From: Vairimorpha necatrix
Lineage: Eukaryota
DNA length: 64,000 nucleotides
Assembly (NCBI GenBank): GCA_036630325.1
Contig: CP142731.1
Coordinates: 1,054,001-1,118,000, forward strand
Reading direction: 5' to 3'
The first letter of the stretch is position 1; each line of letters begins with the position of its first letter. A program made the translations under genes and the position numbers. This document shows, in pieces, positions 1 through 60,368 of this stretch. The notes under the pieces are model-generated. The model was not told where the DNA came from. It ran no database searches and worked only from the letters and a program-made list of their open reading frames with translations.

Positions 1-4
1 AGAG

Positions 5-2962
5 TTGGATGGAGTAGATGAGTCTCTATGGAAGGCAAGAATTTATGAAATGGGTTCGGAAGAAGTAAAGAACTTTATGGTAGAAAGAATTAAAAAAGAA
101 GATAGTTGGTCCTTAATTATTGAAGAAATGGAAAAGGAGGTTAGAAAAGACGAATTAAAAAAGAAGGAAGAAGAAGACAAAAGTAAGATGATGGAAATAA
201 TTGCAGAGTCGGTTAGAGGAACAGTTCGAGAGGAGCTGGCAAATAGAGGAGCATTAGGAAAAATAAGGGAAGAAACTTCGGGAGTAAGAAGTAGAGATTG
301 TTTTTACTGTGGTAGATTTAGGCACATGGCAAGAGATTGCTTCGTAAGGAAGAGGAAAGAAGAAGATAATAAAAATAAACATTTTAACAAGTATTTAATT
401 GTTCATGAAGAGAGTGGATCTACAAGCACAGAACTTAGCGCACAAGAATATAGGAAATGCGGAGAAGCAAAACGTAAACAAAATTCAAAAAGGAGAGGAA
501 TGAGAGAGGATAGAATAGAAGAGGGCCTTGTCATTGAAGATATAAAAGCGAAGTTTAGAGAAATTTTTGACTTGCAGCAGGAAGAGATCGTACACTGTAA
601 GATAGAGAAATGTAAAATTGAGACGCCACCAGGGAAAAAAGTAGTTAAAAGAGGACAAACTATCCCACAGGCGTTGATGGAAAAAACTGAAAAATATATA
701 AAAAGTTTGGAAGAAAGAAAGATTATAAGAAGATCAACATCCGAGTGGAGGAACCCAATTAGAGCTATAGTAAAACCTAACGGAGGAGTAAGGCTTGTAA
801 GTAATCTAATGAGTTTAAATGACTTAGTTGAAAAAGATCCGTATGAGTTGTCAAATATTAGGGACATCGTTAGAGCCACACAGGGGTCTAAATGGTTTAC
901 CGTTATAGATCTGAAGGAAGGCTTTTACCACGTAGAGATTGAAGAAGAGGATAAGCACAAAACGGCCTTTGAATTTAACAGAAAGGTATATGAATGGAAC
1001 AGTATGGTAATGGGATATAAAAATTCCCCGCAGATTTTACAACGAATAATGAACCAAATATTTGAAGATTTACAAGGAGAAGGAGTGGAGGTATATATGG
1101 ACGACATCGTTATACACGCTAGAACTAAAAGAAGGCATGACAAGCTAGTTATAGAAGCATTGGAAAGATTAAAAAGACATAAAATGAGATTGAATATTGA
1201 GAAGATACAGTTTAGCCAACAGTTAGTTAAGCTCTTAGGAGTCACATTGAATGGTACAGATATTGAAGCGAATGAAATAAAGAAGAACGAGGCGTTGGAA
1301 TTCCCGCAGCCGACAAGTGTAAGTGAAACACGAAGATTCCTAGGAATGACAGGATGGTTTAGGAACTTTATAAAGAATTACGCGGGATTAACTATTCATC
1401 TGACAGATAGCTTGAGAGGTAAAGATAAGAAGTGGGAATGGACGGTTGAAATGAATAGAGAGTTTTTAGAGCTGAAAGAAGTTTTGAGAGCGATGGGGAA
1501 ACTTAGATTGCCTGATTATAGGAAGGAATTTATATTGAGAACGGACGCGAGCAATGTAGGGATAGGAGCCGTGTTACTTCAGAAGAACGATAAAGATGAA
1601 TGGGTAGCAATCCAATGGAGTTCAAAAAAGTTAACACCTACAGAGACCAGATATACTATATCGGAGAAAGAAATGTACGCGGTATTTTGGGGGATAAAAA
1701 GATTTGAATACGAGTTGCGCGGTAGGAAGTTTAAAATCGAGACGGACCATAAAGCCTTGGTTGAGATTAGAAATAAACCGTGTTTTAATAACAATAGAAT
1801 AAATAGATGGATTGAAAAGATCCAGGAATTTGACTTCACCATAGAATATAAGAAACCAGAAGAAATGGTGGTGGCTGACGCGTTAAGCAGGATACATATG
1901 GAAGACGATGAAAAGAAAAAGAAAATCAGAGAAAGGACCGCCAAGCAGATAGAGGGTAAATGGAAAGCGCACGTCGATGACGCAGAAGGAAAAAAATATT
2001 GGAGATTTGATTCAGGACGGAAAGTCGAGATACCACCAGAAGAGTCGAGGGAAAGTTTGATGCAGGAATACCACGAAAAAGTTGGACATAGATGTATGAC
2101 AAGTGTATATTACGCGATGCGGGAAAGATTTTATTGGCCCGGAATAAAGAAAGACATAAATGAGACAATACGAAAGTGTGTACAATGTCAAATATATAAT
2201 AGAAAAAGACTCGGTGGATGTGAGTTTGTAGATACTACACGTTATTTAGAAAAGGTTGCTTTGGATCTCATTGATTTTAGAGACGCAGGTAAATACGTAT
2301 TGGTTGCGATAGATTATTACACTCGAAGAGTATGGGGCACGGTAATGGAGAACAAGACTGGAAAGAATGTGACAGAATTTTTAAGTAAGTTGTGTGAACA
2401 AGGAAAAAAGCCCGAAGAGATTATAACGGATAATGGGCGAGAATTTATCAATGAGGGGTTTAGAGAGTTGTGTAACAGACTAGAAATTAAACATAGGAAA
2501 GTAAGTGTCGAATCACACAGGAGTAATGGCAGAGTCGAGAGGGTTATAGGTACGCTGCGAGAGAGCATTCTGAAGACTAAAGAAGGTACATTTGCAGAGA
2601 AGGTCATGGGAAGCATTGAAAAATATAATATGAGTTACCACACGGCACTAAAATGTACACCAATAGAAGCGACAGAGGATAAAACTGGACATGTAATGAT
2701 TGAAAATAGCCCACAGGGGAAATATGGAAAACTGTTTAACAGGGGGAAACGGGAAAAATTTAAAGTAGGTGAGTACGTGAGAGTAGCTAAGAAGGAAAAC
2801 TTGAAAGGTGCGGATAAATATTCGAAAGGTAGGTTTTTAGAGAGTGGGAAAATTATAGAGAGATGTGGCAATGATTCTTATATAGTTAAGTTAGTAAATG
2901 GAAGATATGTAAAGAAAAGGCACTATGATCTAAAAAGTCTGCTTGGGTTAAGGATAAAGTGA
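5..2962 (+). CDS. Gag-Pol polyprotein, 5'-partial (zinc knuckle, RT, RNase H, integrase)
   Basis: CFYCGRFRHMARDC knuckle; RT motifs IDLKEGFYH and YMDD; RNase H TDAS...EKE...TDH...ADALSR; integrase HHCC (HEKVGH...CVQC) and DDE (LDLID, TDNGREF, NGRVER). RT-RH-IN order is Ty3/gypsy type. Confidence 0.96.
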   Translation: MDGVDESLWKARIYEMGSEEVKNFMVERIKKEDSWSLIIEEMEKEVRKDELKKKEEEDKSKMMEIIAESVRGTVREELANRGALGKIREETSGVRSRDCFYCGRFRHMARDCFVRKRKEEDNKNKHFNKYLIVHEESGSTSTELSAQEYRKCGEAKRKQNSKRRGMREDRIEEGLVIEDIKAKFREIFDLQQEEIVHCKIEKCKIETPPGKKVVKRGQTIPQALMEKTEKYIKSLEERKIIRRSTSEWRNPIRAIVKPNGGVRLVSNLMSLNDLVEKDPYELSNIRDIVRATQGSKWFTVIDLKEGFYHVEIEEEDKHKTAFEFNRKVYEWNSMVMGYKNSPQILQRIMNQIFEDLQGEGVEVYMDDIVIHARTKRRHDKLVIEALERLKRHKMRLNIEKIQFSQQLVKLLGVTLNGTDIEANEIKKNEALEFPQPTSVSETRRFLGMTGWFRNFIKNYAGLTIHLTDSLRGKDKKWEWTVEMNREFLELKEVLRAMGKLRLPDYRKEFILRTDASNVGIGAVLLQKNDKDEWVAIQWSSKKLTPTETRYTISEKEMYAVFWGIKRFEYELRGRKFKIETDHKALVEIRNKPCFNNNRINRWIEKIQEFDFTIEYKKPEEMVVADALSRIHMEDDEKKKKIRERTAKQIEGKWKAHVDDAEGKKYWRFDSGRKVEIPPEESRESLMQEYHEKVGHRCMTSVYYAMRERFYWPGIKKDINETIRKCVQCQIYNRKRLGGCEFVDTTRYLEKVALDLIDFRDAGKYVLVAIDYYTRRVWGTVMENKTGKNVTEFLSKLCEQGKKPEEIITDNGREFINEGFRELCNRLEIKHRKVSVESHRSNGRVERVIGTLRESILKTKEGTFAEKVMGSIEKYNMSYHTALKCTPIEATEDKTGHVMIENSPQGKYGKLFNRGKREKFKVGEYVRVAKKENLKGADKYSKGRFLESGKIIERCGNDSYIVKLVNGRYVKKRHYDLKSLLGLRIK

Positions 2963-2985
2963 GACTAACCGTCTTGGAGGGGGGA

Positions 2986-3033
2986 TGTTATATATTTTGA
3001 TAATTTTTACCCCCATTATGATAAATAAATACA
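2986..3033 (+). repeat. 3' LTR (48 bp)
   Basis: TGTTATATATTTTGATAATTTTTACCCCCATTATGATAAATAAATACA, directly after the PPT. Confidence 0.95.
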
Positions 3034-3217
3034 TAAAATAATTTTTGGGGGTTTTATAGAAAAAATCTCTTTTTTTTTCAAATACCAAGATTTTTTAATA
3101 TTAATTTTTATTGGAATATTTTTTATACGATTTTAACAGTAGAACCTTTTTAAGTAAACTTGTAAAAAATCTGTTCTAGATACATTTAATCTATAAAGCT
3201 AAAAAAATTTTTGTTTG

Positions 3218-4174
3218 CTAATTCAACTTTATTCCATATTGATTTCTAAGTATTTGAAGATCCGATATGATTGCCGAACAATAATAGCCAATTCTTTTCA
3301 ATCTCCCAAATATAAATTTCAATCTCTTTCTTATTAGTCTTAACGCATATGTTTCATCAAAAGCTAATTTATATCCACATCCTCTTTTAAAATTCAATGC
3401 GAAAATATCAAACTTCGTGATTATTTTGTATTGTTTATCTAAAATTTCAAGTCTTTCATATAATTTGACGTATATTGACATTAATATATGACTCGTGTAT
3501 TTGTAACGTTGTTGGTTAGGCAACATATCATTTATATAATCAATACAAAGTTTAAAAAGATTAAATTGCACACATAACGATTTCTTAGACTTTCTTTTAT
3601 CAGGAAAATTATTTATGACATTATTAATTTTATCCAAGTTTACAAACAATTCATATTTAAACCGGAAAAAAATGTCAGTAATCACATGTCGATTTTTAAG
3701 ATATCTTTTTAGTATTTTTGATGAACCATCGCAAATTAGTTTCATGACATGCAATTTAATTTGTTTATCTTCTAAATCCCAGTTACCAATTTGAACCTGA
3801 AGTTTCTCCAATACAGATTCCCATTCTGTTTTTATTGTCTCTTTTTTTTTAATATTTTTGTCATGATTTGATTTCTCATTCTGTATTTTCGTATTCTCAC
3901 ATACGCGTTTAGGGCTAGTGATAGAATAATCTTTTGTATGAGCAATTACAGATTTCAAACGACAACTCTGTGTTGATGCCGACACATTATTAGAATTTGG
4001 TATATTACAAGATAATTTTCTTTTTTTAAAAGGAAGTGTTTGTTCATCTGGATTTGCAATAGGTATTGTTTGTTTTTTGTTAAATTGTAATGACAGATCA
4101 ACTTGTAATGGATTTGATTCATATGATTTATTTATAATTTCAGCGCATGTTACTAAAAAAAGGTATACAAGCAT
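3218..4174 (-). CDS. Putative secreted protein, family A paralog 1 (318 aa)
   Basis: Short hydrophobic N-terminus, LPFKKRK at residue 47, shared W...I..W..ED and FKLCIDYI...YERL blocks; AACCCTATT before the ATG. Confidence 0.88.
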   Translation of the reverse strand: MLVYLFLVTCAEIINKSYESNPLQVDLSLQFNKKQTIPIANPDEQTLPFKKRKLSCNIPNSNNVSASTQSCRLKSVIAHTKDYSITSPKRVCENTKIQNEKSNHDKNIKKKETIKTEWESVLEKLQVQIGNWDLEDKQIKLHVMKLICDGSSKILKRYLKNRHVITDIFFRFKYELFVNLDKINNVINNFPDKRKSKKSLCVQFNLFKLCIDYINDMLPNQQRYKYTSHILMSIYVKLYERLEILDKQYKIITKFDIFALNFKRGCGYKLAFDETYALRLIRKRLKFIFGRLKRIGYYCSAIISDLQILRNQYGIKLN

Positions 4175-9511: not shown

Positions 9512-10468
9512 TTATTTTGACCAATAATGATTTTTTTCATTTTCTGTTCTTACATCTTCAAGATTTGACACGATTATTTTACAATCTTTTCTGAGTTTCT
9601 TCAAATACCGATATAAACTTTTTATTTTTATTTCTATCTTTCTTAATGGCTTTATTTCATGATTTTGCGATGAGTTAATACATCTCATTTGCAATATATT
9701 ATTCAAAATTCCAATCTTTTTGATTAAATTAAATTCTGTATATAAGAAGTCGAGTCGTTCATACATTTTTCCGTAAATTGAAATTAAAAATGAAGTATGA
9801 TATAGGTATTGTACTTTGGTAGATGACGCCATATTTGATATGTAGTCAATGCAAAGTTTAAAAAAATGAATTTGGTCGTATAACAATTTTTCTTCTTTTT
9901 TTATATTTTGTTGGTTTTCTATAAAATTCTTGATTTCAATGTATTCATCCTCTGATTTAATATTAAATTTATGAAAATACCCTGCAATTTTTATTCTGGT
10001 TGATTTATAAATAGCTAGTTCCTTTGGTACAGTGGCATTAACAATTTTAAAATTGTCCCTTTTTACCTTTCCGTCTTCATCATTCCATTCTTTAATTTTT
10101 CTTTCTAATGTCTGAACTAACAATTTCCAATCATCACCAGTCCTCGGATTTTTTTCATTATCATTATTTATATTTTGACTTGTGTCTTTACACTTTACTT
10201 TTATATTCTCACAATCTCTTTCGGAAAAATTATCTTTAGTGTCATTATTTTCTAAAAATATTGGTTTTGAATGACAACTTTCTGTTGTCTTCCAGAAAAC
10301 ATATAATCCCTTTCTTTTTTTAAATGGTAGATTTTTATCATCCATTAATGTGTATGTTGACGTTCTCTTTTGATTATATTGTGCCAAACTATCTGATTGC
10401 GCAATTTGTGATTCGTCTGTTTGATTAAAAGATTTGGTACATATCGTTAAAAAGATATATTGAAACAT
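9512..10468 (-). CDS. Putative secreted protein, family A paralog 2 (318 aa)
   Basis: Signal-like MFQYIFLTIC, LPFKKRK at residue 47, AAATTTGCACCCCTAAT before the ATG, AATAAA overlapping the stop. Confidence 0.9.
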   Translation of the reverse strand: MFQYIFLTICTKSFNQTDESQIAQSDSLAQYNQKRTSTYTLMDDKNLPFKKRKGLYVFWKTTESCHSKPIFLENNDTKDNFSERDCENIKVKCKDTSQNINNDNEKNPRTGDDWKLLVQTLERKIKEWNDEDGKVKRDNFKIVNATVPKELAIYKSTRIKIAGYFHKFNIKSEDEYIEIKNFIENQQNIKKEEKLLYDQIHFFKLCIDYISNMASSTKVQYLYHTSFLISIYGKMYERLDFLYTEFNLIKKIGILNNILQMRCINSSQNHEIKPLRKIEIKIKSLYRYLKKLRKDCKIIVSNLEDVRTENEKNHYWSK

Positions 10469-12689: not shown

Positions 12690-14750
12690 TATAAGTAACC
12701 TGCAAGTAAAGACTATACCTACCTAGATCTAAAATTGGAGAGGCCTCATAAGCACTGAAGATAGAAACGAAAGTATGCTTCTAAATATATGTAAAAAATT
12801 ATATTGGTCTAAAAATAGCATATTAAGACGTGCAACGATACTTAAAGTAGAAGCGGAGAGTAAAGCAGCTCGTTTACAAGCAACGAGTATCTATGGATTA
12901 GGTATAGCTTAGTAGGAGAAATGGTCCAGAAGATACTAATAAAATTCTAGAAAGAAGATTTTACGTCAAATAAGGACAAACCATGGAAAGTATTTAAAGC
13001 TGAGAATAGTTATTTAGTAAGCATTGGGGACTCTTTTACCTGGCTGGTCAGAGGAAACAATCAGGCAGATTCGAAGCAGTTTATTGCTTCTTACAGGATA
13101 AAAATATTTTCTCTGGATAAAAAAGTTAATGCTATCAATGTTGATCACATAAGTGCCGTGAATCATCTAGTTCCCAAGTGTGGTCGAATGTTGAGTTTAT
13201 ATTATATGAAAAACAAGGCTAATTTTCACTTTATCCCCCCTTACCAATATAAATTAAGAATTTTTAAAAAATATCCCTTTTTTCAAAAGTCAAAGTGTCC
13301 AGAGCGGAAAGGAACAAAGAAAAATTTACATAAGTAAAAAAATGGTCTTAGAAATATCTAATTTGAACATAGTTTATAAAAAATATATTATTTAAACCAA
13401 TTTAATAATGTTTTCTAAAAAAATATGAGTTAAATAGAAGTCTAGAATTGTAAAAATATGTTTTAACCTATTGCTTTTATTTGTCATTACAATTAATTTT
13501 TGCCATTGATAAACTTGTTTATACTTCAGTTTATGTTGTTTAAAACAAATTTTAGGTTTGGTTATTCTTAGTTTGGTAGTATATTTATTAGTCTTGTTTT
13601 TTAGGTTTTCATTGGTTTTTCTAGACAAACAGAGAAAAAATAATATTATATTTATGCTCTTTAAAAAATTATTGAATCGTATATAATGTCAGTTTAATAA
13701 GAAATGTTATATTTTAGCTCCAAAAGTAATTTATCACATGCTTGGAAAATTCTTTAATTCTTAAAAAATATTCATTTATAACAGCAAATGAACCTTATAT
13801 AATATTGTTTATGTCGTAGCCCATCAAAAACTAGCCAATCATCTTTCGACAAATGTAAGTATTTGATTGGCCACTAAAACTATTTAAAAACATTTCCAAA
13901 AGAGGGGATGGAAAATTATAATAAACAGTTTGACAGTTTATATAAAGATTTTCGTTGTTATACATTGCAATGTACAATAAAGATAAATCTTGATCAATAA
14001 GTGGAAGAAGGAAATTTTTAAAAAATTGAAAAAAAAACGAAAAAACAATTGTTTTATTTTTGGTAAATATGCTATTTTATTACAACTTTATTTTTTTGAC
14101 TTTTGCTCCTTCACATTTTTTCCGCTTCGAATTTCGAAAAAAAGGGATATTTTTTAAAAATTCTTAATTTATATTGGTAAGGGGGGGAAAAAATAAAAAA
14201 GCTCCAAAAACAGACGAGATAATTAGACGCGGCCATCTCTTACTATGTAAAAGTATGGATTCAAGAAGGGCAAGAAAAATAAGTGACACTCACTACAGAG
14301 ATCACGGAAAATGTTTGCGCGGAAAAAAGAATAGAACGAGGGTTATCACTAAACAAAAGAATGAACCATAATAAGTTGACATTGTTTTGACAAGAAAAAA
14401 GAAATTTGCAAGTTAAAGTTGGTATAGCTAACCAGGTCCGACTCACTATAGTAAATATAGATAAACTAAGAATATGATTTCCTTGCAAATGAAATGGGAC
14501 TAATACATAAATTCCGCACATAAACAGTTCAAATGTAATGACATGGTTTGGAATGGTGAAAGAACACACAGAAACTATATTAGGGAGTAGAAATTCAATT
14601 CTACCTTGAAGCGTACATCCAGTTCTCTGTGCTTAATAAGACTCTAGAGCTTTTCTCTTTGTAACGACGACGAGAATATGAACGAGAAGATGTCAGTTAG
14701 GGATGTAAATTCATTAACAAATATTACGTCTGTTACAGAAGTAGCGGACT
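12690..14750 (+). mobile_element. Decayed RLE-type non-LTR fragment split by a MITE
   Basis: RLYLPRS.IG.GL, WLVRGNN and YYMK lie before 13217 and DEIIRR.HLLLC resumes after 14205; similar to 19690-20700. Confidence 0.8.
13217..14205. mobile_element. Merlin-family non-autonomous element
   Basis: Ends GGCTAATTTTCACTTTATCCCCCC...GCTCC, ~90-bp TIRs related to the element at 23921, near-TSD AAAAACAA/AAAAACAG. Confidence 0.85.
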
Positions 14751-15879: not shown

Positions 15880-16735
15880 GAAGCTTTCCCACTTTAGTCC
15901 CCCCCCTTACATATATAAATACAAATTTTCAAAAAATATCCCTGATTTTTGAAAATCGAAACGGACAGAACGGGAAGGAGAAAAATACAAAAAAAAATCT
16001 AATAAAACAACATAATAACCAAAAATAAACAAATTATTTTTTTTATTTTTTCAATTTCCTTAATATTTCATTATAGTTCTGACTTGATCAAATCCTCTAC
16101 TTATTATACATAAATTTGTATAATAAAAAGATATATTATTGAATATGTATAATAAATAATAACATAACTATGTTATAATGTAATAATAAAAAATCAATAA
16201 GAATTTTTTTTCTATATTAATAAATTAAATTAATCTTATAGCAGTTTATCTTTAAAATTCATAATTTTAATCTTATATAATATATATGAATGATTAAAAA
16301 TACATAAATATGAAAATTTTCCTCTTCATTTGTTTATAAAAAACAATCAATTACCTAAAATACTAATATTTTATATAAATATTTAAAATAATAAGAACCA
16401 AACCTAAAATCTGTATTAAACATCATAAATGGATGAAAAACATAAGTTTTAACACGGAAATATGATAATAATGACAGAAGAAAATAATTTTCTTTTTATG
16501 TAATTAGACATCTATTTAATCATAATTTTGATAAAATAATTATAATAATTGTTTTATTATTATGTTTTACATGGAATATGATCAAAATAGAACTTATTAT
16601 AACTATTATATACTACTTTATAAATTTTATATTTTCTCCTTCCCGTTCTGTCCGTTTCGATTTTCAAAAATCAGGGATATTTTTTGAAAATTTGTATTTA
16701 TATATGTAAGGGGGGGACTAAAGTGGTTTTTGGCC
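15880..16735. mobile_element. Merlin-family MITE
   Basis: Near-perfect ~95-bp inverted repeats (15889-15985 vs 16631-16726), AT-rich interior, flanking duplication TGAAAATTT at 15871-15879 and 16736-16744. Confidence 0.92.
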
Positions 16736-17019: not shown

Positions 17020-17970
17020 TTAGTCAACTAATTTTTTTTCTTTTTTTGTTCTCATTACTTCAAGATTTGACACAATTCGCTTACAATCTTCTTCGAGTCT
17101 TTCCAAATACCGATATAAAGAATTTAATTTTTTTTCTATCTTTCTTAATGGCTTTATTTCATGATTTAGCGATACATTCAGACATCTCATTTGCAATAAT
17201 TTGTTCAAAATTTCAATCTTTTCAATTAGATTAAATTCTTTATATAAGAAGTCGAGTCGTTCATACATTTTCCCGTAAACTGAAATTAAAAATGAAGTAT
17301 TGTGGCGGTATTTTACTTGGGTTGATGACGCCATATTGATTATGTAGTCAATGCAAAGTTTAAAAAAAAGAATTTGGTCGTATAACAATTTTTTTTTCAT
17401 TTTCATGTTTTGATAGTTTTTTATGAATTTCTTGATTTCAATGTATTCATTGTTTAAATTTTTATAAAATTTATAAAAATAGTTATAAATTGATTTTTTG
17501 GTTGATTTATAAATAGCAAGTTCCTTTGGTGCACTTGCATTCACTTTTATAAAATTGTTATCTTTTACCTTATTGTCTTCGTCATTCCATTCTTTAATTT
17601 TTCTTTCTAGTGTCTGAACTAACAATTTCCAATCATCCCCAGAGTTATGAATTTTTTCATTATTATTATTATTAATTTGACTTGTGTCTTTAGACTTTAT
17701 TCTTTTATTCCCAGAATCTACTTCGGGAAGATTATCTTTAGTGTCATTGGATTCTAAGAATACTGGTTTTAAATGACAACTTTGTGTTGCCTTACATAAA
17801 ACATATAATTTCTTTCTTTTTTTAAATGGTAAATTTTTATCATCCATTAATGTGTATGTTGACGTTTTGTTTTGATTATATTGTGCCAAACTATCTGATT
17901 GCGCAATTTGTGATTCGTCTGTCTGATTAAAAGATCTAGTACATATCGTTAAAAAAATATATTGAAACAT
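17020..17970 (-). CDS. Putative secreted protein, family A paralog 3 (316 aa)
   Basis: Close paralog of 9512-10468; LPFKKRK at residue 47; CCCC motif before the ATG. Confidence 0.9.
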   Translation of the reverse strand: MFQYIFLTICTRSFNQTDESQIAQSDSLAQYNQNKTSTYTLMDDKNLPFKKRKKLYVLCKATQSCHLKPVFLESNDTKDNLPEVDSGNKRIKSKDTSQINNNNNEKIHNSGDDWKLLVQTLERKIKEWNDEDNKVKDNNFIKVNASAPKELAIYKSTKKSIYNYFYKFYKNLNNEYIEIKKFIKNYQNMKMKKKLLYDQILFFKLCIDYIINMASSTQVKYRHNTSFLISVYGKMYERLDFLYKEFNLIEKIEILNKLLQMRCLNVSLNHEIKPLRKIEKKLNSLYRYLERLEEDCKRIVSNLEVMRTKKEKKLVD

Positions 17971-52288: not shown

Positions 52289-52390
52289 GGGGTAAAAATC
52301 CAAAAAAAATATAAATAATAATATCTAATGTCTTAATAATATTAAGTATGTATAAAGTAATTTGCTGTTGTAATTTTTATACTAGTGTTA

Positions 52391-52612
52391 TTTTTTATTT
52401 TTTTAAATTTGCTAAATTTAGCCAATCTTTGTTTTTTAAAATTTTGCTTTTTTTTATTTTTTTAAATTTGCTAAATTTAGCCAATCTTTGTTTTTTAAAA
52501 TTTTGCTTTTTTATTATTTTTTTAAATTTGCTAAATTTAGCCAGTCTTTGTTTTTATAGAATTTTGCTTTTTTTTAGTTTTTTTAAATTTTGCTTTTTTT
52601 TCTAAATTTTGC
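52391..52612. repeat. ~53-bp tandem repeat (3 copies plus a partial)
   Basis: TTTTTTAAATTTGCTAAATTTAGCCAATCTTTGTTTTTTAAAATTTTGC units. Confidence 0.92.
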
Positions 52613-53827: not shown

Positions 53828-54930
53828 TAAAAAAAATTTAGAAATTTTTTAACAACACTTTTTTTAGACTAATAATGAGATTAAAATTTTTATTATTTAA
53901 AAAATTAAAAAAACATTTAAAAATATCTATTTAAGTTTTAATAATATTTTTAGACCAGGCGCATTAGATTTTAGGACTTGTATTTAAATTATTATTTGCT
54001 TGATCTTCATTTAAGTTTTTTTTCTAAAAGATTTGCTATATTCTTAATTATGAGCTAATATTCAGCTGTATATTCAAACTTTGCCTTTTGGTTTAATAAT
54101 TTAAAAATAGACATTTTTTAATATAAAATTTGTTATAAAAAAGCAAATGAAACTTGAAAATAAAACTTATAGTCAGCTATTTGCAAATCCTAAAGCTGAT
54201 TCTTGAATAATTGCTAAAATAACTTACTATTTGCAAGTACTCTTTTTATCTATCGCGTCATCATAAGTATTTTCCTTTATAAATATTCATCTAAAAAAAC
54301 GTATCATATTCATAAAACCCCAAATATTTGTTTTTATTTAAATCAAAGTATTATTGTTTTTTTATAATTTTTGATCATAGAATAAATATCAAAAATCAGT
54401 CTAAAGGTCGCTTTATTACTTTTTTTCCTGGGGTTTTAGTTAAAAATCTAAATTAATTTCTGTAGCTAAATTATTTTTTATGTTTAAGGAAAAATGTTTT
54501 TATAAAAATTATTATAGATGCGTACAACAAGACATATGGTTATTAGATACAGACCAGTGGTTATTTGAAGCTCTTTTTTAAAAATTGTTAATTAATTTTA
54601 TCGAAATCTTCGTTATTAAGGCAAGTTATTGAATTTTATTGAGAATTCGTATTTGGATATTTTTTGCTCAATTCATTTATAAATTTTTGTGAAATTTATT
54701 ATTCTATGTATTTAGTTTGAATGATGCAGCCAAATATAGCATAGTTACAAGATAATTCAAGAAAAATATAATATGGGAAGAGTTTTTTTATACATTAAAA
54801 GGTTGCAAAAAAGTACTTTATTTCTCAATTATTTTGAATGAGATTAAAACAATAAAGAATGTATTTATTTATCATAATGGGGGTAAAAATTATCAAAATA
54901 TATAACATCCCCCCTCCAAGACGGTTAGTC

Positions 54931-57900
54931 TCACTTTATCCTTAACCCAAGCAGACTTTTTAGATCATAGTGCCTTTTCTTTACATATCTTCCATTTACT
55001 AACTTAACTATATAAGAATCATTGCCACATCTCTCTATAATTTTCCCACTCTCTAAAAACCTACCTTTCGAATATTTATCCGCACCTTTCAAGTTTTCCT
55101 TCTTAGCTACTCTCACATACTCACCTACTTTAAATTTTTCCCGTTTCCCCCTGTTAAACAGTTTTCCATATTTCCCTTGTGGGCTATTTTCAATCATTAC
55201 ATGTCCAGTTTTATCCTCTGTCGCTTCTATTGGTGTACATTTTAGTGCCGTGTGGTAACTCATATTATATTTTTCAATGCTTCCCATGACCTTCTCTGCA
55301 AATGTACCTTCTTTAGTCTTCAGAATGCTCTCTCGCAGCGTACCTATAACCCTCTCGACTCTGCCATTACTCCTGTGTGATTCGACACTTACTTTCCTAT
55401 GTTTAATTTCTAGTCTGTTACACAACTCTCTAAACCCCTCATTGATAAATTCTCGCCCATTATCCGTTATAATCTCTTCGGGCTTTTTTCCTTGTTCACA
55501 CAACTTACTTAAAAATTCTGTCACATTCTTTCCAGTCTTGTTCTCCATTACCGTGCCCCATACTCTTCGAGTGTAATAATCTATCGCAACCAATACGTAT
55601 TTACCTGCGTCTCTAAAATCAATGAGATCCAAAGCAACCTTTTCTAAATAACGTGTAGTATCTACAAACTCACATCCACCGAGTCTTTTTCTATTATATA
55701 TTTGACATTGTACACACTTTCGAATTGTCTCATTTATGTCCTTCTTTATTCCGGGCCAATAAAATCTTTCCCGCATCGCGTAATATACACTTGTCATACA
55801 TCTATGTCCAACTTTTTCGTGGTATTCCTGCATCAAACTTTCCCTTGACCCTTCTGGTGGTATCTCGACTTTCCGTCCTGAATCAAATCTCCAATATTTT
55901 TTTCCTTCTGCGTCATCGACGTGCGCTTTCCATTTACCCTCTATCTGCTTGGCGGTCCTTTCTCTGATTTTCTTTTTCTTTTCATCGTCTTCCATATGTA
56001 TCCTGCTTAACGCGTCAGCCACCACCATTTCTTCTGGTTTCTTATATTCTATGGTGAAGTCAAATTCCTGGATCTTTTCAATCCATCTATTTATTCTATT
56101 GTTATTAAAACACGGTTTATTTCTAATCTCAACCAAGGCTTTATGGTCCGTCTCGATTTTAAACTTCCTACCGCGCAACTCGTATTCAAATCTTTTTATC
56201 CCCCAAAATACCGCGTACATTTCTTTCTCCGATATAGTATATCTGGTCTCTGTAGGTGTTAACTTTTTTGAACTCCATTGGATTGCTACCCATTCATCTT
56301 TATCGTTCTTCTGAAGTAACACGGCTCCTATCCCTACATTGCTCGCGTCCGTTCTCAATATAAATTCCTTCCTATAATCAGGCAATCTAAGTTTCCCCAT
56401 CGCTCTCAAAACTTCTTTCAGCTCTAAAAACTCTCTATTCATTTCAACCGTCCATTCCCACCTCTTATCTTTACCTCTCAAGCTATCTGTCAGATGAATA
56501 GTTAATCCCGCGTAATTCTTTATAAAGTTCCTAAACCATCCTGTCATTCCTAGGAATCTTCGTGTTTCACTTACACTTGTCGGCTGCGGGAATTCCAACG
56601 CCTCGTTCTTCTTTATTTCATTCGCTTCAATATCTGTACCATTCAATGTGACTCCTAAGAGCTTAACTAACTGTTGGCTAAACTGTATCTTCTCAATATT
56701 CAATCTCATTTTATGTCTTTTTAATCTTTCCAATGCTTCTATAACTAGCTTGTCATGCCTTCTTTTAGTTCTAGCGTGTATAACGATGTCGTCCATATAT
56801 ACCTCCACTCCTTCTCCTTGTAAATCTTCAAATATTTGGTTCATTATTCGTTGTAAAATCTGCGGGGAATTTTCATATCCCATTACCATACTGTTCCATT
56901 CATATACCTTTCTGTTAAATTCAAAGGCCGTTTTGTGCTTATCCTCTTCTTCAATCTCTACGTGGTAAAAGCCTTCCTTCAGATCTATAACGGTAAACCA
57001 TTTAGACCCCTGTGTGGCTCTAACAATGTCCCTAATATTTGACAACTCATACGGATCTTTTTCAACTAAGTCATTTAAACTCATTAGATTACTTACAAGC
57101 CTTACTCCTCCGTTAGGTTTTACTATAGCTCTAATTGGGTTCCTCCACTCGGATGTTGATCTTCTTATAATCTTTCTTTCTTCCAAACTTTTTATATATT
57201 TTTCAGTTTTTTTCATCAACGCCTGTGGGATAGTTTGTCCTCTTTTAACTACTTTTTTCCCTGGTGGCGTCTCAATTTTACATTTCTCTATCTTACAGTG
57301 TACGATCTCTTCCTGCTGTAAGTCGAAAATTTCTCTAAACTTCGCTTTTATATCTTCAATGACAAGGCCCTCTTCTATTCTATCCTCTCTCATTCCTCTC
57401 CTTTTTGAATTTTGTTTACGTTTTGCTTCTCCGCATTTCCTATATTCTTGTGCGCTAAGTTCTGTGCTTGTAGATCCACTCTCTTCATAAACAATTCTAT
57501 ACTTGTTAAAATGTTTATTTTTATTATCTTCTTCTTTCCTCTTCCTTACGAAGCAATCTCTTGCCATGTGCCCAAATCTACCACAGTAAAAACAATCTCT
57601 ACTTCTTACTCTCGTAGTTTCTTCCCTTATTTTTCCTAATGCTCCTCTATTTGCCAGCTCCTCTCGAACTGTTCCTCTAACCGACTCTGCAATTATTTCC
57701 ATCATCTTACTTTTGTCTTCTTCTTCCTTCTTTTTTAATTCGTCCTTTCTAACCTCCTTTTCCATTTCTTCAATAATTAAGGACCAACTATCTTCTTTTT
57801 TAATTCTTTCTACAATAAAGTTCTTTACTTCTTCCGAACCCATTTCATAAATTCTTGCCTTCCATAGAGACTCATCTACTCCATCCAACTCTAGCTTATA

Positions 57901-58002
57901 AACTATTCTTTTAATTTCTTGTAACATTATTCTGGCCTCTTGACCACAGCCATCACTTGTTGACTCTCGATTTGGTATCGCCCCCATGTATTTATTTATC
58001 AT
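54931..58002 (-). CDS. Gag-Pol polyprotein, single intact ORF (1023 aa from ATG 58002)
   Basis: Same domains as copy 1. First ATG lies inside the LTR after CCCCC; a second in-frame ATG at 57987. Confidence 0.95.
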   Translation of the reverse strand: MINKYMGAIPNRESTSDGCGQEARIMLQEIKRIVYKLELDGVDESLWKARIYEMGSEEVKNFIVERIKKEDSWSLIIEEMEKEVRKDELKKKEEEDKSKMMEIIAESVRGTVREELANRGALGKIREETTRVRSRDCFYCGRFGHMARDCFVRKRKEEDNKNKHFNKYRIVYEESGSTSTELSAQEYRKCGEAKRKQNSKRRGMREDRIEEGLVIEDIKAKFREIFDLQQEEIVHCKIEKCKIETPPGKKVVKRGQTIPQALMKKTEKYIKSLEERKIIRRSTSEWRNPIRAIVKPNGGVRLVSNLMSLNDLVEKDPYELSNIRDIVRATQGSKWFTVIDLKEGFYHVEIEEEDKHKTAFEFNRKVYEWNSMVMGYENSPQILQRIMNQIFEDLQGEGVEVYMDDIVIHARTKRRHDKLVIEALERLKRHKMRLNIEKIQFSQQLVKLLGVTLNGTDIEANEIKKNEALEFPQPTSVSETRRFLGMTGWFRNFIKNYAGLTIHLTDSLRGKDKRWEWTVEMNREFLELKEVLRAMGKLRLPDYRKEFILRTDASNVGIGAVLLQKNDKDEWVAIQWSSKKLTPTETRYTISEKEMYAVFWGIKRFEYELRGRKFKIETDHKALVEIRNKPCFNNNRINRWIEKIQEFDFTIEYKKPEEMVVADALSRIHMEDDEKKKKIRERTAKQIEGKWKAHVDDAEGKKYWRFDSGRKVEIPPEGSRESLMQEYHEKVGHRCMTSVYYAMRERFYWPGIKKDINETIRKCVQCQIYNRKRLGGCEFVDTTRYLEKVALDLIDFRDAGKYVLVAIDYYTRRVWGTVMENKTGKNVTEFLSKLCEQGKKPEEIITDNGREFINEGFRELCNRLEIKHRKVSVESHRSNGRVERVIGTLRESILKTKEGTFAEKVMGSIEKYNMSYHTALKCTPIEATEDKTGHVMIENSPQGKYGKLFNRGKREKFKVGEYVRVAKKENLKGADKYSKGRFLESGKIIERCGNDSYIVKLVNGRYVKKRHYDLKSLLGLRIK
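57971..57986 (-). promoter_or_regulatory. Primer-binding site, probably tRNA-Pro
   Basis: TGGGGGC start is as in tRNA-Pro-type PBSs; the host tRNA was not checked. Confidence 0.6.
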
Positions 58003-60368
58003 AATGGGGGTAAAAATTATCAAAATATATAACAAAGAATATATTCTAGTATGTCATGTTTTTGGAATGTTTTTTTGGCAAATTAAAATAAAATTTCAGT
58101 GTGGAAAAAAATAGTTAATTAAATAATTTTTAGAGTTTTAAAATGTTAAAAACATGTAACAAAAAAAAAGAATACGAAACATAACAAAAAGCTATCGGAT
58201 TGTAATGAACCTAATATTTAACTTGTAAGGTAATTGATAAACATTTGTCAATCGTTGTATTGACGTTTAGATATCTAAATCTATATTTATAATGGTGTAA
58301 AAATTTTCGAAATAGAATTATACAACAGCGGCTTGTTTATTTTCATATAGATTTTTGATCTTAGGTTATAAATTAAGTTTGGACGAAAGGATTTCGAAAA
58401 AAATTGGAAATTCTTTGCTTCTTTTTTTCTGCGATGCTACGTGTTAAAAAGTACTACACTAAATATGCATGCGTAATGTAATTGATTGGCTAAAATGATA
58501 AGTACAATTTTTTACAAGCACAGAACTAATGTGAATTGTTATTTTTTTATTAAACCTGAAATATATATATCTTTAAAGTGTTAAAAATTAACTATAAAAA
58601 AACTATTTATCTGCTTCTTGGGCTATAATATTTTTTTTACTTAATTACTTTTTTCTGCATAATTGAAACGACTATAATTTGTGCTATTGCTAGTGCACAT
58701 CATCCTGATCCTTCTATTTCCGATAAAATCATGCTGTCAAGAATTTTCTTACGAATGAGAATTTAATCTACTCAGTATAAATAATAGTATATTTCTATAT
58801 TTTTTTGTGGAACCTTAGATTAACTAAAAAAACCTATGAAAATATATATAGTACAGCACAGATGATATTATTTTCTGTTTTAAAGTTACTTTTAATCATA
58901 CACTTTCAGATTTTTGTGTAAAACTCCTATTCGTAAGCAATCTGTTTATTGTATACAACATAATATGAAGTGGTACTTCCTCGAATAAAAAAAAAGCTTT
59001 GCTGTAAGTTATGAAACTTAATATTACTTACAATATGGTACTAGTAGAAAATTTTTATTTTATCTCTGAAATCTAAAAAAAAAACAATTAGTATTAAATT
59101 TACAACATATAAAAGGTCTTAATAGTATGTGTAATTTCGGTATGGTGATTACATAGACACCCCTTTTGGAATCTTTTATTTTTTAATATTCAAAATTAAA
59201 TTTCAGAATGGGAGAACAAGAATAAGACGATCATTATAGAGCACTTGTATTATTAAAAATCTAATCGGAACTTTTAATCATGTCATGTAACTAAATAATA
59301 GCACATGCACTTATTTGACCTGATATTATAAATTTTTTGTCGACTCAAACAATTTGTAAATGTGAAGTATATGTATAACTCTTCTACTTAAGACCGTATT
59401 CTTTTAAAATTTTCTTTAAATTAAAAATGCATTATTAGCAAAAAAAAAACCATAAATAATGGAAAAAATTAGATCAATAAAGCCATAGGCCATGTATTTA
59501 ATAAGAGTCTCGACATGGGCCATAAGTGACTGTATTCTATAGTAATCATATGATAAAAACTTAGTTGGTAATTCTCATCCCACCTTGCGTCCAATTTTTA
59601 CAACTTTAATTTTTAGATTACAAAAAAATAAACATCTCCACAATTGTTTATTAGCATCCCTACCCTTGGAAAACTTTATAAGAGTACGATAGTAGGTAAT
59701 TTAATACTAACAAAATTTATGTTTGTTTATATATATCTTTTGGCGTGTAAATTGCGCCGATTCCGTTCATATTTGTAACGTTTTAAAAACACCATTGAGT
59801 GAAATTAAGTATTCGAATAAAATGCCGCTTTTATTATAGGTTTGTTTCAATATTTATTCAGCTGTGCTTGTGTGTATCAACTTTGTAAATTTAATTTTAA
59901 TTAAAACTAAGTATTTTTAAATAAAATGCTGTTTTTATCTTACCAAGAACATAGCATTTCTTCCCTCGATGTAATATTAACTGTTGCGGTCTATGATAAG
60001 CAATCACTTTGAAATTATTAATATTCTTCTTAAATTCAACATTTTCAATTTTACTACTATCATATGTTAATATTAGACTACAAAAAGCACTTTTGTTACT
60101 TTTTGCATAATTTTTTAGCATCAACAATGTTAATTGCGTTTATTGTGTATTTTAATACTATTTTCTGCATGGACGTGGCAGAAGTTTTATGACGATTGTC
60201 TTTAATTGTATAATATTATGAACATCCGCAATAACATAATTGCGTCTGTTAAAATACTTTTCGATCACAAAATTAACATTAGATTCAACCGTTTTTTTAC
60301 AAACCGTTTAAAGATCTAGGTAACGTTTCAAAAAATACTCATATAAACTTTAAAATTTATTAAAAACT

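Follow-up and report, generated by a model that had tools for sequence, protein, structure and literature searches.

How small can the long terminal repeat (LTR) of a retrotransposon become and still serve the element that it encloses? LTRs normally measure hundreds of bases, because three things must fit into them: a promoter, the repeat used in strand transfer, and a signal for 3' end formation. The question is raised by a stretch of 64,000 nucleotides from the microsporidian Vairimorpha necatrix (contig CP142731.1, positions 1,054,001 to 1,118,000, forward strand; hereafter the window), in which a complete LTR retrotransposon of 3175 bp occupies positions 54860-58034 on the minus strand between two LTRs of only 48 bp. 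We interpret it as an intact, recently active retrotransposon of the Ty3/gypsy lineage, belonging to a compact, protease-less family with a single open reading frame (ORF), in which the whole LTR spans 47-49 bp and holds a promoter of the host type, and we give this reading a probability of about 0.65. The boundaries of the element, in its own 5' to 3' direction, and its second copy are as follows (window coordinates; TSD, target-site duplication; PBS, primer-binding site; PPT, polypurine tract).

58035..58039, minus strand: TSD, upstream copy, TTCTT in element orientation
57987..58034, minus strand: 5' LTR, 48 bp, TG..CA, identical to the 3' LTR; motifs by element position are a TATA-like box at 4-10, AATTTTT at 17-23, CCCCC at 25-29, ATG at 33-35, and AATAAA at 39-44
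57969..57986, minus strand: putative PBS, TGGGGGCGATACCAAATC, within the ORF, encoding (M)GAIPN
54919..54932, minus strand: conserved motif GAGACTAACCGTCT, directly 5' of the PPT and overlapping the stop codon
54908..54917, minus strand: PPT, GGAGGGGGGA, adjoining the 3' LTR
54860..54907, minus strand: 3' LTR, 48 bp, identical to the 5' LTR
54855..54859, minus strand: TSD, downstream copy
1..3033, plus strand: second copy in opposite orientation, cut at the window edge so that its first 142 bp are absent, with its own 3' LTR at 2986-3033

The 48-nucleotide LTR string occurs exactly three times in the window, namely at 2986-3033 (plus strand), 54860-54907 (minus strand), and 57987-58034 (minus strand); none of 100 shuffles of the window gave a match, and no additional or diverged copy was found in the window at a tolerance of up to 14 mismatches in 48. 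The two LTRs of the 54860-58034 element are identical, with TG..CA ends in element orientation, and the element is flanked by a 5-bp TSD that reads AAGAA on the plus strand and TTCTT in element orientation. A putative PBS beginning TGGGGGCGATACC lies immediately 3' of the 5' LTR, and the PPT lies immediately 5' of the 3' LTR. Hallmarks of the LTR order are present, namely direct terminal repeats with TG..CA ends, a TSD of the 4-6 bp class, and a PPT abutting the 3' LTR. The element has a G+C content of 36.9%, as compared with 27.7% for the window. An earlier note on this DNA, made from the sequence alone, had described a complete 3175-bp element with TSD, PBS, PPT, and identical 48-bp LTRs, and this structure is borne out, with the PBS a putative one. 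The same note counted a third identical LTR at 2986-3033; the sequence is real, but it is not a solo LTR, being instead the 3' LTR of the second copy, which is cut by the edge of the window.

The second copy differs from the 54860-58034 element at 20 positions in 3034 nucleotides (99.3% identity). All 20 differences fall within the ORF, nine of them synonymous and 11 nonsynonymous, and the ORF is open in both copies (in the second, over the part present). A public DNA sequencing run, X1, contains a 3101-bp contig over 54903-58003 with a word depth of 20.4, as compared with 1.1-3.95 on the covered flanks, and 13 of the 18 letters at which this contig differs from the window lie at sites where the second copy differs as well. 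Neither an empty site nor a solo LTR is marked by any joint in the X1 contigs, which leave the near flanks uncovered. Separately, at window positions 54900-54901, two loose-ended X1 contigs agree over the internal 3' end and the first ~8 nucleotides of the LTR but diverge from there on, which may indicate a sister subfamily whose LTR body is different.

The element is almost entirely coding. Its ORF begins at LTR position 33 (ATG at 33-35), covers 3072 of the 3175 nucleotides (97%), and has its stop codon 23 nucleotides before the 3' LTR. The last LTR base joins the first two PBS bases (TG) to give another in-frame ATG, and the PBS codes for ORF residues 6-12 (MGAIPNR). The ORF and its domains are arranged as follows.

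54931..58002, minus strand: single ORF of 1023 aa, stop codon included in the span, with a Gag-like helical region, CCHC knuckle, reverse transcriptase (RT), RNase H, and integrase
57553..57594, minus strand: CCHC zinc knuckle, aa 137-150 (PF00098, E 9.4e-5), with C137, C140, H145, and C150 invariant
56644..57123, minus strand: reverse transcriptase (RVT_1), aa 294-453 (PF00078, E 2.2e-32)
56062..56454, minus strand: RNase H, aa 517-647 (PF17919, PF17917)
55396..55857, minus strand: integrase zinc-binding domain (H2C2, aa 716-771; PF17921) and integrase core (rve, aa 791-869; PF00665)

The Pfam domains follow the order CCHC, RT, RNase H, and integrase, and the position of the integrase downstream of RT-RNase H is the Ty3/gypsy order. 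The best matches among solved structures are Ty3 Gag-Pol (7q5b, E 8.2e-67) and Ty3 RT (4ol8, E 1.4e-56). In an alignment of 16 family members, the Asp pair of the RT YMDD motif, the acidic residues of RNase H, and the HHCC and DDE residues of the integrase are invariant. Judged by its RT, RNase H, and integrase sequences, the element belongs to the Ty3/gypsy (Metaviridae) lineage, a placement drawn from solved-structure and Pfam matches and not from an RT phylogeny with reference clades, and it departs from the canonical architecture of that lineage by the absence of a protease.

The region upstream of the RT is less easily named. An AlphaFold model of residues 1-260, built on a 16-row alignment, has a mean predicted local distance difference test score (pLDDT) of 68, with confident helices over residues 16-131 followed by the knuckle. 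A Foldseek search with this model gave no match at E up to 0.001. In VIA-align comparisons, residues ~20-89 matched the Arc C-lobe with a Z score of 6.2 (root-mean-square deviation 2.6 over 64 aa), and also the Arc C-terminal domain (Z 6.3) and the C-terminal domain of Rous sarcoma virus capsid protein (Z 5.5), scores that tie with those of unrelated helical proteins. The Gag region may contain a single capsid-like lobe. On the opposite strand, the element also contains an ORF of 154 aa (window 57026-57490, plus strand) that has a high content of Ser, Leu, and Phe and probably results from the composition of the sense strand.

The retropepsin expected between Gag and RT in a Ty3/gypsy element was not found here. 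A Pfam search of residues 1-290 detected no protease at a threshold as loose as E 10; the sequence upstream of the RT is free of D[ST]G motifs, the sole D[ST]G in the protein being at residue 707, inside the integrase; and the element contains no further sense-strand ORF of at least 60 aa. A hidden protease was therefore rejected on the Pfam (residues 1-290), D[ST]G, and ORF evidence. These same absences lend themselves to the reading that the element is non-autonomous, either relying on a protease-encoding relative or being a non-mobile, domesticated, or decaying copy whose short LTR is a degenerate state, and the elements of Nosema bombycis have been reported as Gag-PR-RT-RH-IN (where PR is protease, RH is RNase H, and IN is integrase) in passages of PMC2474625, citing Xu 2006. 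However, the protease is equally missing from the neighbors of this element in sequence space, as the retropepsin Pfam family is listed for none of its 54 closest database relatives (E up to 3.1e-100) and for 20 of the 63 weaker hits. Many of these protease-less relatives keep open frames of ~1000 aa across several microsporidian genera, which favors a long-lived, self-sustaining lineage, and the window itself holds two near-identical intact copies, with identical LTRs and an intact TSD. We therefore regard non-autonomy as unlikely. Our search of the literature on protease-less LTR retrotransposons returned nothing relevant.

Whether so short an LTR belongs to the family or to this copy was addressed with relatives at the DNA level. 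A scan of metagenomes yielded four loci and a scan of genome contigs two (together L001-L006), none of which contains both ends of one element; a scan of viral contigs found no relatives, and a repeat search found no LTR pair in L001-L003. In L003, a degenerate relative has at its end a G-rich tract, after which comes a 49-bp TGTT..CACA segment (3222-3270), and in L002 (1055-1103, reverse) a 49-bp segment ~90% identical to it forms the 5' end of another copy and is followed by TGGCACCCGATG. Similarity between these two loci begins and stops exactly at the borders of the 49-bp segment, with a PPT on one side and a TGG-type PBS on the other. L006 contains TGTT..CACA followed by TGGCAACACCG, a 47-bp span that is a candidate LTR, and L005 contains a PPT followed by TGTT. 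A sequence initiated by TGG abuts the LTR in the window element, L002, and L006, and G-rich, PPT-like tracts also occur in L003 and L005. On the evidence of these sequences, the short LTR is a family trait, with 48 bp in the window, 49 bp in the metagenomic family, and a candidate 47 bp in L006.

The junction of LTR and PBS can also be followed in proteins. We surveyed 34 of 117 database hits, namely those of at least 930 aa among P0001-P0051. In 21 of the 34, Met-Ala or Met-Gly stands at position 1 or at positions 4-11, which is what ..CA|TGG.. gives when read in frame, and 15 of those 21 have an additional in-frame Met 3-6 codons upstream, within the LTR. The remaining 13 lack the junction signature, and several of them are N-terminally truncated or more distant. 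The in-frame ATG inside the LTR, the second ATG at the LTR/PBS junction, and the protein-coding PBS, all of which had been claimed for this element from its sequence, are therefore seen in its ORF and recur across relatives. The residues that follow the junction fall into MGA, MANT, MAP, and MAS types, implying different primer tRNAs. At the other end, the C-termini of 11 of the 34 relatives read ..GG(D/M)(V/L).., corresponding to a PPT followed by the TGTT of an LTR, so that in these relatives the ORF ends inside the 3' LTR. Among named proteins, the best match is to a "reverse transcriptase" of V. necatrix (93% identity across 61% of the query); those of Nosema granulosis, Enteropsectra breve, and Nematocida minor come next, and a host of the Nosema/Vairimorpha clade would fit. 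A search of a representative library returned mainly long multi-copy polyproteins and was uninformative on N-termini.

A further shared feature lies just upstream of the PPT. The 14-nucleotide motif GAGACTA(A/C)CCGTCT is present in the window element (54919-54932, minus strand) and in L005 (~2699-2712), occurs in slightly altered form in L003 (~3197-3210), and is visible as ET(T/P)(R/S)L..GG in the C-termini of relatives. Its reading frame differs between the window element and the relatives, which indicates conservation as nucleic acid. Predicted folds of the motif and 3' region from three elements were no better than those of shuffled sequences (z -0.2 to -0.5) and were mutually unlike.

Several peculiarities of these loci deserve record in their own right. 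In L001 and L002, an RNase H fragment is fused in frame to a Gag start, which marks a copy that is nested or rearranged. A second metagenomic element type (L001 3139-3200; L003 4923-4970, reverse) carries the motif GTTTGTTATCTG(A/C)CC on both sides of a purine tract, followed by an A-run. The records of L005 and L006 are titled as Clostridium and Turicibacter metagenome-assembled genomes, and the relative P0023 is named bacterial in the public database; the presence of microsporidian-type retrotransposon contigs in bacterial metagenome-assembled genomes likely reflects bin contamination.

How could a promoter fit into such an LTR? For comparison, we used the window ORFs of at least 250 aa, comprising eight host ORFs and the element. 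A CCC starting at -10 to -3 relative to the ATG precedes all eight host ORFs (background 0.05), and TATA[AT]A[AT] starting at -31 to -23 precedes four of the eight (background 0.036). The LTR has both, with TATATAT at -29, the T-run AATTTTT, and CCC at -8 to -6 relative to its ATG. The layout of T-run, CCC, and ATG that the earlier note saw as common to the LTR and the host genes of the window is thus upheld, the Sec7-domain gene (Pfam E 8.6e-26) having TTTTTACCCC directly before its ATG. (Some 100 nucleotides upstream of that gene, at window 52388-52582, lie three tandem copies of an AT-rich unit of ~60 nucleotides.) In Nosema ceranae, genes have a T homopolymer and a C triplet no more than 15 bp from the start codon, with a TATA peak near -27 (PMC2685015), and for Encephalitozoon cuniculi, passages of PMC2803860 describe 5' untranslated regions (UTRs) under 7 nucleotides, AAATTT-like and CCC-like signals, and the use of AAUAAA. 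By analogy with such genes, the first ~30 nucleotides of the LTR would constitute U3, as a minimal RNA polymerase II (Pol II) promoter of the host type (TATA-like box at -29, AAATTT-like T-run, and CCC), and transcription would start a few nucleotides before the ATG, with the transcription start site (TSS) at about LTR positions 27-32. On the same analogy, R and U5 together would amount to ~17-22 nucleotides.

An alternative is that the 48-bp repeat provides only the integrase ends and the homology for strand transfer, that transcription comes from flanking promoters or from read-through, which is known to be pervasive in microsporidia, and that the promoter-like motifs are incidental. AT-rich sequence does easily yield TATA-like and AATAAA strings, and overrun and polycistronic transcripts are documented in E. 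cuniculi (passages of PMC2803860). Yet strong-stop DNA copied from such a transcript would end in flanking sequence, unable to pair at the 3' end; the arrangement of CCC and ATG matches that of eight of eight host genes (background 0.05); the start codon within the LTR is conserved in relatives; and a promoter could not be provided by every one of the differing insertion sites. We consider transcription from outside quite unlikely.

A candidate 3' end signal also lies within the LTR. AATAAA lies at LTR positions 39-44 of the window element, 4 nucleotides from the LTR end, and is present in all four independent LTRs, starting at position 39 in the window, 15 in L003/L002, 16 in L006, and 24 in L005. 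Its chance of occurring in a 48-mer of the composition of the window LTR is 0.12, so that its presence in all four suggests that the hexamer is probably selected, its place not being fixed. The statement in the earlier note that AATAAA ends 4 nucleotides from the LTR end is accordingly true of the window element, whereas the position is not a feature of the family. In the window element, the transcript directed by this AATAAA would end with the LTR or slightly past it; as 4 nucleotides separate the hexamer from the LTR end, the cut would be made in flanking sequence. The 3' LTR would then be included whole in the RNA, with an effective repeat reaching from the TSS to the LTR end.

Minus-strand synthesis would be primed by a tRNA whose 3' end pairs with TGGGGGCGATAC. 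All PBSs of the family begin with TGG, as expected for pairing with the CCA end of a tRNA, and at least the first 12-13 nucleotides of the window PBS look like the complement of a tRNA 3' end, implying a tRNA that ends in ..GGTATCGCCCCCA. The discriminator C and the first three acceptor pairs of this implied tRNA may point to tRNA-Pro. The very short strong-stop DNA would then transfer to the same ~20 nucleotides in the 3' LTR, aided by the CCHC nucleocapsid-like knuckle, after which the PPT would prime the plus strand and the integrase would make the 5-bp duplication. A strand transfer on ~15-20 nucleotides had been proposed beforehand for this element (our estimate is ~17-22 nucleotides); it would not be unprecedented, as passages of PMC6088434 give retroviral R regions of 16 nucleotides (mouse mammary tumor virus, MMTV) to 247 nucleotides.

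Priming could instead proceed without a tRNA, by a Tf1-like mechanism in which the CCCCCAU at the RNA 5' end folds back on the AUGGGGG at the LTR/PBS junction and is cut to a primer. In the predicted fold of an RNA starting at LTR position 24, the C-run does pair with the first PBS bases (minimum free energy -23.6 kcal/mol, z -2.1, with 4 of 200 shuffles folding as well), and the family resembles Tf1 in having a single ORF. Self-priming is nonetheless highly improbable, because the complementarity is only 7 nucleotides, all family PBSs start with TGG while the bases that follow differ (MGA, MANT, MAP, and MAS types), the L002 LTR has by eye no complement to its own PBS, and the C-run would, by analogy with host genes (passages of PMC2803860), lie upstream of the TSS and hence outside the RNA.

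Several points weigh against the interpretation of the element as a recently active retrotransposon with a complete, host-type promoter in its LTR. The TSS, the polyadenylation site, and the sizes of R and U5 are placed by analogy; the position of AATAAA varies, from 39 in the window to 15-24 in relatives; and two degenerate relatives have an imperfect CCC (TCC in L002 and ACC in L006). ARAGORN found no tRNA gene in the window or in five loci, and hence no match to the PBS there; an Rfam search of the window likewise gave no match. Among the relatives, the left edge of the L006 LTR is set from TGTT only, and the right edge of the L005 LTR cannot be set. The 9:11 split of synonymous to nonsynonymous differences between the two copies is a mild excess of synonymous change but, with 20 differences, weak evidence of selection, and the depth of the X1 contig, although it suggests repetition of the element in that organism, is a depth and not a copy number. 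Finally, without a protease, the family may be unable to process its own polyprotein.

The window contains other repeats as well. Four paralogous ORFs of 316-322 aa, all starting with MFQY and all on the minus strand (9512-10468, 17020-17970, 26993-27961, and 32995-33960), sit in tandemly repeated units of 6-7.5 kb (repeat families D1-D5 and D7-D19); the two members that were tested had no Pfam match. A perfect inverted repeat of 85 nucleotides has its arms at 15900-15984 and 16632-16716, 647 nucleotides apart, and relatives of ~99 nucleotides that end in a G-run occur in both orientations near 13223, 14089, 16619, 23939, and 25097. This looks like a family of small elements with terminal inverted repeats, or of elements resembling miniature inverted-repeat transposable elements.

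If this family has the shortest functional LTR design known, as we tentatively suggest below, it would mark the minimum to which the LTR of a self-propagating retrotransposon can shrink. A working 48-bp LTR would show how far LTR functions can be compressed when host promoters are tiny, would offer a natural test case for first-strand transfer on ~20 nucleotides, and would link the evolution of selfish elements to the extreme economy of gene expression in microsporidia. Under the same condition, LTR finders with a default minimum of 100 bp would systematically miss such elements in microsporidian genomes. Because elements of this kind evade both structure-based LTR annotation and dating by LTR divergence, LTR retrotransposon structure is probably under-annotated in these parasite genomes. 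The absence of the protease poses a second question, namely how a Gag-RT-RH-IN fusion works unprocessed.

Among known systems, the window element resembles Ty3 of Saccharomyces cerevisiae in the order and homology of RT, RNase H, and integrase, the CCHC knuckle, the TG..CA LTRs, the 5-bp TSD, the TGG-type PBS, and the PPT. It differs in its 48-bp LTR, its single ORF, the lack of a protease, and the start of the RT at residue ~240, as compared with ~585 in Ty3 Gag-Pol. Ty3 itself encodes a protease, divides its coding sequence between two overlapping ORFs, and carries LTRs a few hundred bp long, and its targets are genes transcribed by RNA polymerase III, whereas the window element has no tRNA gene within 64 kb. 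With Tf1/Tf2 of Schizosaccharomyces pombe, it shares a single ORF running from Gag through integrase, and one database relative is automatically named 'Transposon Tf2-9 polyprotein'. Tf1 is self-primed, encodes a protease, and carries LTRs several hundred bp long; the window element, unlike Tf1, has a PBS of the tRNA (TGG) type.

Closer in host are the single-ORF Ty3/gypsy elements of microsporidia, namely Nbr1-8 of N. bombycis and the 'retro' families of Anncaliia algerae, which share with the window element the host phylum and the single polyprotein; such elements are described in microsporidia in passages of PMC4202319, and the earlier note had mentioned those of N. bombycis. In the A. algerae Consensus_retroA, the terminal repeats measure ~190 bp (by eye, in supplementary file S1 of PMC4202319), as compared with 48 bp here, and the Nbr elements are reported with a protease (passages of PMC2474625), which the window element lacks. 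LTR lengths of the Nbr elements are absent from the passages of PMC3614468, PMC5012567, PMC10759460, and PMC12449221 that we consulted, and PMC11592040 yielded no hit. For V. necatrix, passages of PMC10759460 give a genome of 28.3% G+C with ~50% repeats and 109 annotated retroelement genes, and the term LTR does not occur in them.

The nearest parallels in LTR length are FRetro64 and FRetro129 (SMART) of grasses, to which the title of smallest LTR retrotransposon was given in 2012; in these elements, too, the LTRs are unusually short and have TG..CA ends, and the TSD is 5 bp (passages of PMC3281118). Of the two, whose LTRs measure 76-90 bp, FRetro129 has no coding sequence and FRetro64 belongs to Ty1/copia, with a length of 5.2 kb, whereas the window element has 48-bp LTRs, is coding, and is of the Ty3/gypsy lineage. 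In those parts of the literature on shortest or very short LTRs that we could consult, nothing shorter than the 76-90 bp of FRetro64 and FRetro129 was found. MMTV offers a parallel for a first strand transfer on a very short repeat, with an R of 16 nucleotides against the predicted ~17-22 here (passages of PMC6088434), but within a long LTR with a large U3, whereas the whole LTR of the window element is 48 bp and its repeat length is an estimate. Set against these systems, in a comparison made without the LTR lengths of Nbr (Xu et al. 2006) or Repbase, the chance that an LTR design of 47-49 bp is both functional and undescribed is close to even. Slightly below even, and hence tentative, is our suggestion that this family has the shortest functional LTR design known: because ~30 bp can accommodate a microsporidian Pol II promoter and the 5' UTRs span a few nucleotides, the three LTR regions (U3, R, and U5) would have collapsed into 48 bp that include the start codon, with the PBS translated, some ORFs ending in the 3' LTR, and the protease lost.

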